Part shown: piece after piece, positions 31,033-38,066 of the stretch
Position numbering within the stretch: position 1 is the stretch's first letter
How the letters are laid out: the number at the start of each line of letters is the position of its first letter
Assembly (NCBI GenBank): GCA_030831165.1
Contig: JAURLP010000036.1
Coordinates: forward strand, 7,622 to 71,621
Length of the DNA: 64,000 bases
DNA from: Gammaproteobacteria bacterium
GTDB taxonomy: Bacteria > Pseudomonadota > Gammaproteobacteria > Pseudomonadales > Pseudohongiellaceae
Reading direction: 5' to 3'
The notes under the pieces: generated by a model
The model's database searches: none
What the model was told of the DNA's origin: nothing
What the model saw: the letters and a program-made list of their open reading frames with translations, nothing else
Made by a program: the position numbers and the translations under genes

Positions 31033-31102
31033 GTGATTTCACCTCATTGCAGCCTGAGCTTTACCTTTACCGCCTTGATATAAAAAAGTAACATTGCGCC
31101 CC

Positions 31103-31780
31103 ATGACTAATAAACACGTAACGCAAACAACCAGTGCACGGATCCCTACTAAATACGGCGATTTTCAGCTGTGCGCCTATACCAACTCAGAAGATGATAA
31201 AGATCATCTAGCCTTGATTGCCGGCGACATAGAAAATGCAGAAAATGTGTTAACACGCGTACATTCTGAATGCTTTACCGGGGACGTATTAGGGTCACTT
31301 AGGTGCGATTGTGGTGACCAGCTGGATTTTGCCATGCAAAAAATTGCTAAGGAAGGCTGCGGCGTGATTGTGTATATGCGCCAGGAAGGCAGAGGCATTG
31401 GCCTTTCAAAAAAAATCCAGGCTTATAATTTGCAGGATCAGGGTCATGATACCGTTGATGCAAACTTATTACTTGGCCGTCAAGCGGATGAAAGGGAGTA
31501 CTCACTGGCAGCATTGATACTGAAGGACTTGAAGGTTAAATCGATTCGATTATTAACAAATAACCCAACTAAAATTGAAGCGCTAGAGGCTGAGGGTATA
31601 GTTGTAACAGAAAGACTGGGAGTAGAGGGCACTGTGCACCCTGAAAATGCACAATATCTGATGACCAAAGTAAAGCGGATGAATCATATATTAACCATAG
31701 GGAATCCTCCTGATGCACATGATAACCCTCTCGATGCTCATATAGAAAAAGATCAACATGAGCCTCAACCAACAGATTGA
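31103..31780 (+). CDS. GTP cyclohydrolase II (stand-alone, with an acidic/His-rich C-terminal tail)
   Basis: [32 protein letters not shown] and LLTNNP align along the full length of E. coli RibA. There is no RibB domain. The extra ~30-aa tail reads [24 protein letters not shown]. An alternative TTG start lies at 31094. Confidence 0.85.
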   Translation: [225 protein letters not shown]

Positions 31781-32480
31781 ACGCTGGCTAGCCTCTCGCA
31801 AAAAATCTTTCCAGTCTACTAATAGGCCTTTTACTACATTAGCCTATGCTCAGGCATGGGATGGCAGTATTACAACATGCAGAGGTCAGGCTGTTGCTCT
31901 AAGTTGTAGTGAGTCTGGCCAGTTAACGCACCAGCTGCGAAGTTTGCATGATGGAATATTGGTCGGTATTGAAACAGTGTTGTCTGATGACCCTCAACTC
32001 ACCGTCCGAGAATGGACTGGCAAAAATCCACAACCCATCATACTGGACAGTCGTCTGCGTATGCCTCCTGATTCAAAATTACATGATCATCCAGATAAAA
32101 AGTGCTGGTTATTAACCCTGGAGCAGGGTGATGGTTCTGAAAGTCTTAAAAGTTTAAATCATGAGATCATTCGAATTCGCGGTCATGGCCATGATTTTGT
32201 TCCTTTGTTGCCCGCTTTAAGTTTGCTTAGAGAAAAAGGTATTGAAAGCTTGATGGTTGAGGGGGGCGCAAAAGTCATAACAGAATTTCTAAGGTTAGGT
32301 CTGGCAGATGCAATTGTGATGACAATGACACCCAAACTAATAGGGGGCTATAAAGCGGTGGGGGATATAGACATAGAAGACATATCTGTAGCGCCACTTA
32401 TTTCACCAATAAATTTTGAAAAGCTTGGAGATGATTTAATAGTTTGGGGTGACTTAAATTACAGTGAGTCAGTTAAATGA
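31758..32480 (+). CDS. RibD C-terminal-domain (DHFR-fold) pyrimidine reductase, no deaminase domain
   Basis: RPFTTLAYAQAWDGSI, LHDGILVGIETVLSDDPQLTVR, PQPIILDS and LMVEGGAKVITEFL. Overlaps the preceding gene by 23 nt. Confidence 0.75.
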   Translation: MSLNQQIERWLASRKKSFQSTNRPFTTLAYAQAWDGSITTCRGQAVALSCSESGQLTHQLRSLHDGILVGIETVLSDDPQLTVREWTGKNPQPIILDSRLRMPPDSKLHDHPDKKCWLLTLEQGDGSESLKSLNHEIIRIRGHGHDFVPLLPALSLLREKGIESLMVEGGAKVITEFLRLGLADAIVMTMTPKLIGGYKAVGDIDIEDISVAPLISPINFEKLGDDLIVWGDLNYSESVK

Positions 32481-35901: not shown

Positions 35902-36858
35902 GCGTAAACATATAAACCCGAGACCGAGTACTATTACATCGCGGAATCTGATCAGGGCTAATAGCGATGCAGCGGCAGTTTCAGGTAAGGCAATTGAGCT
36001 AAAAACCCAAAGCACAGCCGCCTCCAATGTCCCAATGCCACCTGGCAAGGGTAATAAAAATGCTAAACGCATCGCTACCAGCAATAAGATGAAATCACCA
36101 GTACCCAGAGATATGTCAAAAAAACTTAATACCAGATAAAGCTCAAAAAATGTTAGTAACCAGCCATTAATTGAAAGTAGCAAGGCAACAAGTAATATCA
36201 ATTTTTTCGATAATACGTTTTTTAAAGAAAAAGTGATGTTGTTCCAGTGAAGACTTATAGTCGATAAGCGTTTGCCGCCTAACCATTTCAAGCCAATTGT
36301 GTAGATTAACTTTGCAAGTGAATCATTGCGTTTAATTCCGCACCACGCTAAGAAAGACATTAAAAACATTGCTAAAGCAATAATTAGCGCCACAGAAATC
36401 CAGTCTGCAAGGCCTGAGCCAGAAAAAATTAGAAATAGTATGCCCAATAGAAGAACGGCAAAATTTACCCAAAGTTCACAAAATCGATCAAGGGCAATGG
36501 CTAAAAAAGAATCGCCTGGTGAAATATTAAATTTCTTCCATAAAAAATAAATTTGTAGAGGCTCGCCGCCGAACTGTGGACCAGGAGTGATAAAGCTGAC
36601 ACTCTGCCCGGCTTGGCGTAAAAAAAGCAGGTTAATAAAATTAAGGTTTAAATTCAGACCAAAAGTCAGCGACATCCATCGCCAAACAAAAATAAAAATT
36701 ATTAATAAGTTTAAGCCTGCCCAATAAATCCATTGCAGCATTGATAAGCTGCCTACAGAATCGAGAATTTCCTTAAAAGGCAAATCACGAAGTAGCCAAA
36801 TTGCCAAAGTTAAGGCGATTATCCAGGCTGCCAATCTGATGGTTTTATACTTACTCAC
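35878..36858 (-). CDS. Flippase-like membrane protein (LPG-synthase TM-region family)
   Basis: 326 aa with about 8 TM helices. The pattern ..FVWRWMSL..LRQAGQSVSFITPGPQFGGEPLQIYFLWKK.. is typical of this family. Its 3' end overlaps the convergent methyltransferase gene by 24 nt. Confidence 0.62.
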   Translation of the reverse strand: MSKYKTIRLAAWIIALTLAIWLLRDLPFKEILDSVGSLSMLQWIYWAGLNLLIIFIFVWRWMSLTFGLNLNLNFINLLFLRQAGQSVSFITPGPQFGGEPLQIYFLWKKFNISPGDSFLAIALDRFCELWVNFAVLLLGILFLIFSGSGLADWISVALIIALAMFLMSFLAWCGIKRNDSLAKLIYTIGLKWLGGKRLSTISLHWNNITFSLKNVLSKKLILLVALLLSINGWLLTFFELYLVLSFFDISLGTGDFILLLVAMRLAFLLPLPGGIGTLEAAVLWVFSSIALPETAAASLLALIRFRDVIVLGLGFICLRLLQSKTV

Positions 36859-36872
36859 TGGCTGCCAGCTTA

Positions 36873-38066
36873 TCAGCCATCGTTGCAGCGGCCATCGTAT
36901 CTATGCACCCAAAGATCATCCCACAGCCATATACTGAATTTCCCTGTGCCGAATTGCATCACCCAAATAACCAGGGTGAGCAAAATAGCATCAATGCTTT
37001 GCATCTGATATGAAAGAAAAAGCCAGCACAGCAGGCACGAAAGAATAATGGCAAAGAAGCGCCCAAGAATACCTAGCAAAACCATCAATGCTGAAAACAG
37101 CAAGCTTATTAACAAAATAGCTCTTGGCAGTGTGATTTCATTAATTAAGGAAGAAAGTGAGGAATGAGCATTCGTTTTTATCAGGAGAAGGAATAGAAAA
37201 CAAAAAATACATACTCTGAAAAAAGGCAATATAAACTGTTGAGTGGCTTTATCAGCCAGTTTAAAAAAGCTGCTTACTGGAGGTTTATTCAGATTAATGC
37301 GCCCGCTTACAATAAACCAGTCAATTAAAAATCCACCTAGTAAAGGCAGCATAAATGCAAATCCGGCGACAGTCGTCGCTGGTGGTGCCAGAATCGGCCA
37401 TAGCACGACGGCAAGAAAACCCATCTGAAATCCTGCAACAGCTCTGCGCGACATGTTAAGGGGCAACTGATAAATGGGTTTATGCTGTTTATTTCTCCAA
37501 TAAAGTCCCCCCTGGAATAAGTAGTAAGCAACACTAACTGATAGATAAGACCAATGAATCTGCCCTGTCCATACCGCTAAAAGGGGGGCTATCAGTAAGC
37601 CAAGCGCATCAAATTCAATATCGAGCTTGATACCCAGTAGGCTCTCATGTTTAGTGATGCGAGCTATGTAGCCATCAATACGGTCGATTATGGCGGCTAC
37701 CAGGTAGCTAAGCGCCGGAATTAAAAGAATTTTTTCACTCAGGTCCAAGAGAAAGGCAAAGCCGGCAGTAAAAGCGATTAAAAAGCCTCGAAATAGGGTG
37801 AGACGATTGGCCCAGCCTAAATCTGGATAGCTAGCCTGTTGTTGTGAATCGCGATTAAGATCAAGGTGCTTACTAAGAATTATATTCGTTGCCAGCAGCC
37901 ATAAAATTACTGCTTGCATAAACCATTGTAGTACCTGCCAAAAAGGCCATATCAAACAAAAAAGAATACTAAAAACAATAAGTAAGCTTAAGCCCAGAAA
38001 GCGAATAAAATTGGCCTCAGATTTTAGTGAGAGAGGCGTTTTTGATGTATTTTCAGAATGGAGCAT
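36873..38066 (-). CDS. CDP-alcohol phosphatidyltransferase-family membrane enzyme (extended, 397 aa)
   Basis: Perfect signature DGYIARITKHESLLGIKLDIEFD, matching D-G-x2-A-R-x8-G-x3-D-x3-D. There are extra TM helices on both the N- and C-terminal sides of the core. Confidence 0.85.
   Translation of the reverse strand: MLHSENTSKTPLSLKSEANFIRFLGLSLLIVFSILFCLIWPFWQVLQWFMQAVILWLLATNIILSKHLDLNRDSQQQASYPDLGWANRLTLFRGFLIAFTAGFAFLLDLSEKILLIPALSYLVAAIIDRIDGYIARITKHESLLGIKLDIEFDALGLLIAPLLAVWTGQIHWSYLSVSVAYYLFQGGLYWRNKQHKPIYQLPLNMSRRAVAGFQMGFLAVVLWPILAPPATTVAGFAFMLPLLGGFLIDWFIVSGRINLNKPPVSSFFKLADKATQQFILPFFRVCIFCFLFLLLIKTNAHSSLSSLINEITLPRAILLISLLFSALMVLLGILGRFFAIILSCLLCWLFLSYQMQSIDAILLTLVIWVMQFGTGKFSIWLWDDLWVHRYDGRCNDG

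Follow-up and report, generated by a model that had tools for sequence, protein, structure and literature searches.

Several described systems each resemble a part of the gene cluster reported here, which comprises eight genes on a 64,000-nt stretch of DNA (the window) from a Gammaproteobacteria bacterium of the family Pseudohongiellaceae (assembly GCA_030831165.1, contig JAURLP010000036.1, forward-strand positions 7,622 to 71,621). The pterin-glycoside pathway of cyanobacteria and Chlorobium shares with the window its logic and its order: a cyclohydrolase, a PTPS-fold enzyme, a nicotinamide-dependent oxidoreductase and a glycosyltransferase of family GT4. That pathway uses GTP cyclohydrolase I, a Cys-type PTPS, a short-chain (SDR) sepiapterin reductase and the glycosyltransferase BGluT, whereas the window has GTP cyclohydrolase II with a ribosyl reductase, a Glu-type PTPS and a medium-chain dehydrogenase (MDR), plus a CDP-alcohol transferase and a flippase-like protein. 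An earlier note on this DNA had dismissed the pterin-glycoside pathway, but we find it to be the closest functional analogue; the resemblance is one of logic and not of membership, as none of its defining enzymes is present as an orthologue. Cyanopterin carries an O-methylated sugar, which would parallel the methyltransferase of the cluster. In the early riboflavin steps of archaea and fungi (GTP cyclohydrolase II or III followed by MjaRED or Rib7), reduction precedes deamination and a stand-alone RibD_C reductase acts on the 2,5-diamino substrate, as predicted for the window, where the dehydrogenase, PTPS and GT4 take the place of a deaminase and of lumazine and riboflavin synthases. The CDP-alcohol transferase has in common with PgsA and mycobacterial phosphatidylinositol-phosphate synthase (PIPS) the catalytic motif and the six-helix core. 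The acceptors of these enzymes are phosphorylated (glycerol-3-phosphate and inositol-1-phosphate), and the candidate acceptor in the window likewise bears a phosphate; the window protein differs by two extra N-terminal helices, a C-terminal domain of ~135 aa and wholly different partner genes. In the mycobacterial phosphatidylinositol-mannoside pathway the GT4 PimA is genetically linked to the synthase. The flippase-like protein has the LPG_synthase_TM domain of MprF and lacks the C-terminal aminoacyl-phosphatidylglycerol synthase domain of that protein. A likeness to the head-group transferases LtaS, EptA, OpgB and BcsG, which hand the head groups of flipped phospholipids to acceptors in the envelope, would come through an LtaS-like companion of related loci.

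Seven of the eight window families lie together in the Streptomyces SCO6650-type locus: a 261-aa CDP-alcohol transferase, a zinc-less MDR, a PTPS-fold protein, a GT4, a methyltransferase, an LPG_synthase_TM protein and a GTP cyclohydrolase II. The Streptomyces PTPS (SCO6650) is of the 'FGPAQ' type, with the Glu and the third zinc histidine replaced by Ala, whereas the window protein keeps the full zinc triad; the Streptomyces transferase is a short form with 34% identity to the window transferase over only 85 residues. Searches of the literature for the gene combination, SCO6650, SCO6655, PTPS-IV and pterin or ribityl lipids returned no account of the whole cluster, its product or such a pathway. 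The earlier note had been unable to match the composition to any of the pathways that it considered. This holds in that the cluster is not a riboflavin, queuosine or folate operon, but the Streptomyces cluster and the neighborhoods described in PMC5445326 are partial precedents. The results below establish the cluster as a real, widespread and modular orphan pathway, whose partial Streptomyces precedents carry no assigned product. We propose, with what we judge to be an even chance of being right, that the unit turns GTP into a glycosylated 2-amino-4-oxo-pyrimidine or pterin alcohol, which would be joined through a phosphodiester to a membrane phospholipid anchor.

We scanned 185,579 species genomes with the CDP-alcohol transferase gene as anchor; 122 species from at least four phyla matched, and 80 loci were kept. 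The kept loci come from Pseudomonadales (Pseudohongiellaceae, OM182, a metagenome-assembled genome (MAG) labelled SAR86 and the cultured Cellvibrio fontiphilus), Methylococcaceae, Desulfuromonadales, Opitutaceae/Pelagisphaera and one Marinimicrobia MAG. All open reading frames (ORFs) of 87 loci, namely the 80 scan loci, other fetched loci and the window, were clustered by similarity. Of these 87 loci, 77 had the PTPS, 77 the dehydrogenase, 76 the flippase-like gene, 75 the GT4, 72 the RibD_C reductase, 66 the methyltransferase and 59 the cyclohydrolase. YceI was the next commonest family (28 loci), and the other families present in more than 13 loci were short ORFs of ~90-175 aa lying over cluster genes, which we read as artefacts. 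Neither a cytidylyltransferase nor a phosphatase recurred among these loci. Because anchoring on the transferase biases the choice of loci, a second scan was anchored on the PTPS gene in metagenome contigs, giving 28 loci with at least 6 kb on each side and covering relatives of at least ~57% identity. All 28 had the dehydrogenase and GT4, 25 had the RibD_C reductase, 23 the cyclohydrolase, 21 the transferase, 21 the flippase-like gene and 19 the methyltransferase; of the 21 loci with the transferase, 19 also had the flippase-like gene. The dehydrogenase gene adjoins the PTPS gene in every one of the 28 loci and in Streptomyces. The arrangement goes far beyond what chance would give, as the two scans, each with its own anchor, find the same genes together in different phyla; the plus- and minus-strand gene sets are co-conserved, and the eight genes are a real functional unit. 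All eight genes also occur in the cultured Chromatocurvus halotolerans and Saccharospirillum impatiens, where the transferase is shorter (269-276 aa). Distant PTPS relatives keep either dehydrogenase-PTPS-GT4, with or without the methyltransferase, or RibD_C-dehydrogenase-PTPS.

The cluster is modular. Dehydrogenase-PTPS-GT4 is the core that stays constant, in most cases with the cyclohydrolase and RibD_C genes before it, and the GT4 gene usually adjoins the PTPS gene, often near enough for translational coupling. A membrane module is made up of three genes that tend to come and go together, those of the methyltransferase, the CDP-alcohol transferase and the flippase-like protein: in the PTPS-anchored sample the methyltransferase was found in 19 of 21 loci with the transferase and in 0 of 7 without it (Fisher p = 3e-5, a value that is indicative only as the loci are not phylogenetically independent). 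This co-variation would also fit two pathways side by side, in which the GT4, methyltransferase, transferase and flippase-like protein make an ordinary glycophospholipid in the manner of PgsA1 and PimA, while the GTP enzymes make a separate cofactor or signal and are merely co-regulated. PimA and the GlcN-phosphatidylglycerol synthase are indeed GT4 enzymes that act on lipids, with weak NCBIfam matches to such models, and the methyltransferase follows the membrane module and not the soluble one. However, the GT4 is present in all 28 PTPS-anchored loci, including those that lack the membrane genes, and is usually adjacent to the PTPS, which places it among the soluble enzymes; if two unrelated pathways had no product in common, their joint inheritance in more than four phyla would also be hard to explain. 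We consider two separate pathways improbable.

The positions of all eight ORFs in the earlier note proved exact when the ORFs of the window were re-read (Table 1). The plus-strand junctions were re-measured with the same result (a 23-nt overlap, an ATGA overlap, a 3-nt gap, a 10-nt gap and an 11-nt overlap), as was the 24-nt overlap of the convergent 3' ends of the methyltransferase and flippase-like genes; 14 nt lie between the two minus-strand genes. The cyclohydrolase could start at ATG 31103 in place of TTG 31094. Cluster G+C is only slightly below that of the flanks. The eight domain calls were likewise upheld by Pfam profile search: GTP_cyclohydro2 (PF00925, 1.3e-69), RibD_C (PF01872, 3.2e-36), ADH_zinc_N and ADH_zinc_N_2 for the dehydrogenase (~4e-8), PTPS (PF01242, 3.6e-25), Glycos_transf_1 (PF00534, 4e-36) and PF13692 (1.2e-28) for the GT4, LPG_synthase_TM (PF03706, 1.1e-24) and CDP-OH_P_transf (PF01066, 1.5e-12), with weak matches of the methyltransferase to Methyltransf_28/12/23 (best 1.5e-6). 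An NCBIfam search assigned none of the eight proteins to a named equivalog. The exact window proteins were absent from the protein collection, where the best matches had 97% and 88% identity.

Table 1. Genes of the cluster, followed by other features of the window (positions in the 64,000-nt window).
Feature	Position	Strand	Remarks
GTP cyclohydrolase II	31094-31780	+	228 aa; stand-alone
RibD_C-only pyrimidine reductase	31758-32480	+	240 aa; without deaminase domain
Zinc-less MDR dehydrogenase	32477-33481	+	334 aa; distantly BchC-like
PTPS/QueD-fold (T-fold) zinc enzyme, 'ExxxHxH' subfamily	33485-33871	+	128 aa
GT4 retaining glycosyltransferase	33882-35018	+	378 aa
Class I S-adenosylmethionine (SAM) methyltransferase	35008-35901	+	297 aa
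LPG_synthase_TM / flippase-like membrane protein	35878-36858	-	326 aa; transmembrane domain only
Long-form CDP-alcohol phosphatidyltransferase	36873-38066	-	397 aa
HAD-family phosphatase and CysQ 3'(2'),5'-bisphosphate nucleotidase	29457-31032	- (HAD), + (CysQ)	CysQ ends 61 nt before cyclohydrolase
tRNA-Phe(GAA)	41629-41704	-	only Rfam or ARAGORN match in 64 kb

The cyclohydrolase passes the NCBIfam RibA subfamily model (261 bits vs a cut-off of 148), and the window protein and all 59 of the 59 cluster-linked copies have the zinc ligands Cys54/65/67 together with Tyr105, Arg128 and Lys154 (E. coli numbering). As these catalytic residues are conserved, the product is expected to be the normal 2,5-diamino-6-ribosylamino-4(3H)-pyrimidinone 5'-phosphate. 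The window protein has 50.5% identity to E. coli RibA, compared to a median of 61% to cluster copies of other phyla, which suggests from the alignments that the cyclohydrolase lineage travels with the cluster. The His/Asp-rich tail noted earlier does exist, running ~25 aa past the end of E. coli RibA, but its sequence is not conserved among relatives and we give it no weight. The reductase has no deaminase domain; RibD_C spans residues 24-228 of its 240 aa in Pfam, and against the NCBIfam eubacterial RibD model it scores 105.8 bits, under the cut-off of 156. Its closest solved relative is the archaeal MjaRED (2azn, 5.5e-24), narrowly before B. subtilis RibG (4e-23). The position aligned with RibG Lys151, which we take to be the residue that recognizes the deaminated substrate and to be typical of bacterial RibD, is Ser, Ala, Cys or Thr in 73 of the 74 cluster reductases, and the remaining row is gapped there. 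The local motif TL(S/A/C)YAQS resembles the 'TLTYAQS' of fungal Rib7. The reductase is thus predicted to act on the non-deaminated 2,5-diamino-6-ribosylamino-pyrimidinone 5'-phosphate, and since no locus has a deaminase, the 2-amino group should persist.

In the PTPS, the His triad is kept (His14/His28/His30) and the catalytic Cys is missing, as the earlier note had described, with Glu24 at the Cys position of PTPS and QueD; in the HMMER alignment this Glu24 falls on Cys42, the catalytic residue of rat PTPS. H14, E24, H28, H30, E85 and E113 do not vary among 30 members with 34-85% identity, and Glu113 aligns with the pterin-anchoring Glu110 of E. coli QueD. The catalytic Asp-His dyad of PTPS is replaced by Lys-Asp in the window protein, at positions that are not conserved in the subfamily. 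The closest solved relative by both sequence and fold is SCO6650 (PDB 3d7j; E 7e-8; TM score 0.80), the structure model having a predicted local distance difference test (pLDDT) score of 90. The 'ExxxHxH' subfamily is large, with 277 clusters at 50% identity (E <= 1e-10). We compared the protein with the named PTPS classes. PTPS-I (QueD, CxxxHGH) does not fit, as the window has E24-N-H-P-H28-S-H30 and no Cys in the N-terminal half; the QueD equivalog model gives 44.8 bits vs a cut-off of 89, and no que genes lie nearby. PTPS-II (CxxxxxHGH with a Cys-Asp-His triad) fails on the Glu at the Cys position and the missing Asp-His dyad. The PTPS-III signature is ExxHGH, with the Glu three residues before the first His (PMC5041015); by sequence, the Glu lies four residues before it in the window protein and in nearly all of 150 subfamily representatives, and we rejected this class also. 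The 'FGPAQ' signature of PTPS-IV is replaced by 'WGDEN' and, unlike in SCO6650, the full His triad is kept. PTPS-IV genes neighbor those of GTP cyclohydrolase II (PF00925) and RibD_C (PF01872) (PMC5445326, 2017), and the same neighborhood surrounds the window PTPS. PTPS-V is called unclear in PMC5041015. The window protein is best called, judging by these motifs, a sister subfamily to PTPS-IV.

These assignments bear on the plainest account of the locus, that housekeeping genes for riboflavin, folate or F420 precursors lie beside phospholipid genes by accident. GTP cyclohydrolase II and RibD_C are riboflavin-pathway families, and PTPS-IV has been linked to F420 synthesis as unpublished work (PMC5041015). 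However, no deaminase, lumazine synthase, riboflavin synthase or RibB was found in the cluster or in the examined ORFs between 18.8 and 52.9 kb, Rfam returned no FMN riboswitch element over the 64 kb even at E up to 1, the reductase has no equivalent of Lys151, and the window PTPS does not have the PTPS-IV motif. In the Desulfuromonas loci the other cluster genes persist although the cyclohydrolase is missing, the cluster cyclohydrolases of other phyla are nearer to the window copy than E. coli RibA is, and linkage to a GT4 and membrane genes has no place in riboflavin, folate or F420 pathways. The housekeeping account is largely refuted, and we regard it as very improbable.

The dehydrogenase has lost its catalytic zinc ligands (Cys38 is replaced by Ala and His63 by Tyr77) and its structural zinc loop is deleted; an acidic residue after the second Rossmann strand gives an NAD-type pattern. 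Its sole full-length model match in NCBIfam is BchC (TIGR01202, 7e-25), at 87.8 bits vs a cut-off of 291. We rejected its identity as BchC, a 3-hydroxyethyl-bacteriochlorophyllide a dehydrogenase, on this score and on the lack of photosynthesis genes at the locus; the likeness is limited to that of a zinc-less MDR of comparable length. The substrate that BchC oxidizes is a secondary alcohol adjoining an aromatic ring. The solved relatives of the GT4 include the sucrose-phosphate-synthase-like Tll1590, MshA and the UDP-glucose:tetrahydrobiopterin glucosyltransferase 5ze7 (2.9e-9), with no clear preference, and the match to BGluT is confined to the generic C-terminal domain and is no better than that to other GT4 enzymes. 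A defense-system reading, prompted by the Pfam name 'GT4-conflict', was evaluated and rejected: PADLOC models matched none of seven of the eight proteins, and the methyltransferase had one generic match (mad2, 2.7e-9). The methyltransferase is homologous over its full length to a 278-aa methyltransferase of Chromatocurvus (2e-8).

The CDP-alcohol transferase has the motif D128-x2-D131-G132-x2-A135-R136-x8-G145-x3-D149-x3-D153, in agreement with the earlier reading; it is invariant in 19 homologues of 41-75% identity, and the protein scores 48.6 bits on PF01066 vs a cut-off of 22. Its AlphaFold2 model (pLDDT 81) has ~14 helices, two of them N-terminal and preceding a PgsA-like catalytic core. 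The C-terminal helical extension of ~135 aa ends in a conserved D-D-x-W-V-x-R-Y-D-G and was unmatched in the fold search. The best solved folds were S. aureus PgsA (7drk/7drj, target-normalized TM score 0.61-0.66 over ~190 columns), with further matches to phosphatidylserine synthase (PSS), AF2299 and PIPS structures. The Chromatocurvus orthologue of 276 aa is 42% identical over window residues 13-265. None of the named head-group synthases could be assigned: PgsA gave 22.8 bits (cut-off 304), archaetidylinositol-phosphate synthase 21.4 (cut-off 180) and PssA 20 (cut-off 107). Because no locus has a cytidylyltransferase and the closest folds use CDP-diacylglycerol, the latter is, on gene content and modelled fold, the most likely donor. 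The flippase-like gene is the immediate downstream neighbor of the transferase gene; its product passes TIGR00374 'flippase-like domain' (69 bits vs a cut-off of 43), and LPG_synthase_TM covers residues 11-311 of 326.

Companion genes at related loci were also analyzed. An LtaS/sulfatase-type membrane-anchored protein of ~540-600 aa occurs, in the PTPS-anchored sample, only in loci that bear the transferase (10 of 21 vs 0 of 7), and in 13 of the 87 transferase-anchored loci; there is no copy in the window. The family profile matches the Listeria LTA primase LtaP (4uop) over 205 columns (E 0.0015), nine of 12 members match Pfam Sulfatase PF00884 (best 4e-8) and four of 12 match the YejM-type membrane domain DUF3413. 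By these profile matches, the ~540-aa companion is classed as a membrane-anchored alkaline-phosphatase-superfamily protein. Membrane enzymes of this kind strip head groups from phospholipids on the outer side of the membrane. Examples lie at 3198-4817 of L086, 3202-4812 of L087 and 17196-18986 of L064 (our designations for related loci), and in L086 and L087 an FkbM-family methyltransferase follows the gene. A gene for a YceI protein with a signal peptide comes immediately after the GT4 and methyltransferase genes, on the same strand, in 28 transferase-anchored and four PTPS-anchored loci (for example, L001 7130-7720, L024 15089-15697 and L135 ~15493), and has no copy in the window. Members of the YceI family are periplasmic proteins that bind lipids or polyisoprenoids. 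The flippase-like partner, as well as the LtaS-like protein and YceI, suggests a lipid that would reach the outer side of the membrane. In L089, where a distant version of the core (dehydrogenase-PTPS-GT4-methyltransferase) occurs without the transferase, a 265-aa ORF (9175-9972) has a weak PlsC-type match (PF01553, 5e-4), which hints at another way of lipid attachment.

In the pathway that we propose, cyclohydrolase II would convert GTP to 2,5-diamino-6-ribosylamino-4(3H)-pyrimidinone 5'-phosphate, and the Rib7/MjaRED-type reductase would reduce this to the ribityl form with the 2-amino group retained. The NAD-type dehydrogenase may then oxidize a secondary alcohol, in our preferred reading the 2'-OH of the ribityl group. 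The resulting 2'-ketone could close onto the 5-amino group to give 7,8-dihydroneopterin 3'-phosphate without GTP cyclohydrolase I, which reaches the same ring closure through an Amadori rearrangement. We consider this specific route through dihydroneopterin phosphate, although it is the chemistry that we favor, to be unlikely. The Glu24-type PTPS, with its pterin-anchoring Glu113 kept, might remodel the side chain, and the GT4 would add a sugar to the resulting alcohol. The methyltransferase and the PgsA-like transferase would methylate the product and attach the lipid at the inner leaflet, from which the flippase-like protein would move it outward. In some relatives, the LtaS/sulfatase-type protein or the periplasmic YceI may act on the flipped product. 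Conserved catalytic or specificity residues support only two of these steps, that of cyclohydrolase II and that of the diaminopyrimidine reductase.

The chief competitor of a lipid-linked product is a soluble pterin or aminopyrimidine glycoside, comparable to tetrahydrobiopterin glucoside or cyanopterin, with the membrane pair adding a small phospho-alcohol taken from a soluble CDP-alcohol or having a separate role such as export. The dehydrogenase-PTPS-GT4 core is invariant (28/28) while the membrane pair is missing in 7 of these 28 loci, and the GT4 matches solved tetrahydrobiopterin glucosyltransferases (~3e-9). L104 has only the five soluble genes (cyclohydrolase-RibD_C-dehydrogenase-PTPS-GT4) followed by a convergent major facilitator superfamily (MFS) transporter and a glycosidase of family GH3, so that here a soluble glycoside can suffice as the final product; the same five genes occur without membrane genes (tblastn) in L105, L115 and L126. 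Upstream in L104 there is also an unannotated 633-aa ORF. CDP-alcohol transferases that make soluble phosphodiesters exist; the family includes membrane enzymes with soluble products, such as di-myo-inositol phosphate synthase. Against a soluble product, the membrane pair is adjacent in 75% of the PTPS-anchored loci and retained across phyla, no conserved cytidylyltransferase is present to supply a soluble CDP-alcohol, and the companions (flippase-like, LtaS/YejM-like and YceI) are lipid-related. We consider a soluble end product unlikely.

Several further observations weigh, together with the loci lacking the membrane pair and the soluble products of the CDP-alcohol family, against the lipid-linked product that we prefer. 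In four close relatives, L012-L015 (48-58% identity), the transferase and the six soluble genes are kept, the flippase-like gene is lost and the methyltransferase gene abuts the transferase gene. L092 has, at 9679-10074, a PTPS of the same subfamily (43% identical) alone beside a TrmB-like methyltransferase (PF02390); as this PTPS lies outside any such cluster, the 'ExxxHxH' subfamily is not exclusive to the cluster. The PgsA fold matches are weak (E ~0.01), and searching PDB chains with the transferase sequence yielded no match. Donor and acceptor of the transferase are both putative. RibD_C is missing in the Streptomyces locus (L088), and the cyclohydrolase there has Met at Tyr105, where the window has Tyr, so the early chemistry is not uniform between the two versions. 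We take the Streptomyces Met-at-Tyr105 enzyme to be SCO6655, a cyclohydrolase in which, as Spoonamore et al. reportedly found in 2006, the change of Tyr105 to Met makes the enzyme stop at the formylamino product. The co-variation of the methyltransferase with the transferase also counts for less with loci that share descent. We infer the lipid linkage, the order of the steps and the flipping, and the roles given to the dehydrogenase and the PTPS, like that order, come from chemical reasoning only.

If the lipid-linked product is correct, the cluster would make a class of bacterial membrane or envelope molecule with a GTP-derived head group, of which our searches found no report. In its fullest form, the proposal would have this as the first known pterin- or ribitylaminopyrimidine-glycoside phospholipid, made with GTP cyclohydrolase I bypassed and with cyclohydrolase II, a ribosyl reductase and a 2'-dehydrogenase standing in for the Amadori rearrangement, and the flipped lipid as a donor for LtaS-like decoration of envelope polymers; so much taken together is unlikely. 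Among the carriers are abundant marine gammaproteobacteria (SAR86-, OM182- and Pseudohongiella-like MAGs), Opitutales, Desulfuromonadales and methanotrophs, with a variant form in many Streptomyces. The proposal, if true, would assign roles to several orphans, namely the 'ExxxHxH' subfamily of PTPS with its sister PTPS-IV, the unusual GTP cyclohydrolase II paralogue of Streptomyces, the zinc-less MDR family and the long-form CDP-alcohol transferase, and might reveal a second biochemical route from GTP to pterins. The antigens of mucosal-associated invariant T (MAIT) cells derive from early riboflavin intermediates after deamination, and a lipid-bound pool related to those intermediates would be of interest to immunologists. 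Even with a soluble product, the cluster would represent a widespread, uncharacterized branch of GTP metabolism.

The rest of the window holds ordinary housekeeping genes of gammaproteobacteria: UbiD, Rho, HemB, GshA, DsbB, MutY, HisBHA, a Ctp-type (S41) protease, iPGM, SecB and an NtrC-family regulator. Promoter and terminator scans were uninformative, with fewer promoter-like sites than in shuffled sequence. We evaluated the adjacent CysQ and HAD genes (Table 1) as phosphatases of the pathway and rejected them, as they lie beside the cluster only in close relatives (9/85 loci in one comparison and 2/28 PTPS-anchored loci). The flanking HAD, CysQ and YjbH genes recur only in the nine closest relatives and are therefore not part of the unit. 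On the other side of the cluster, a small secreted Gly/Thr-rich ORF (38324-38632, plus strand) is followed by a strong terminator-like hairpin (38657-38681), then by YjbH (PF06082, 1e-171) and a 185-aa ORF with no Pfam match, syntenic only in close relatives. The region 38324-41366 (plus strand) resembles an exopolysaccharide locus of the yjbEFGH type. Since the TTG listed as the start of YjbH directly adjoins the hairpin, the real start codon probably lies further downstream. Farther upstream of the cluster, a 711-aa ORF (23451-25586, plus strand) fuses a VTT/DedA-type domain (PF09335, residues 72-184) to a complete pyridine-nucleotide-disulphide oxidoreductase (PF07992 with the dimerization domain PF02852).

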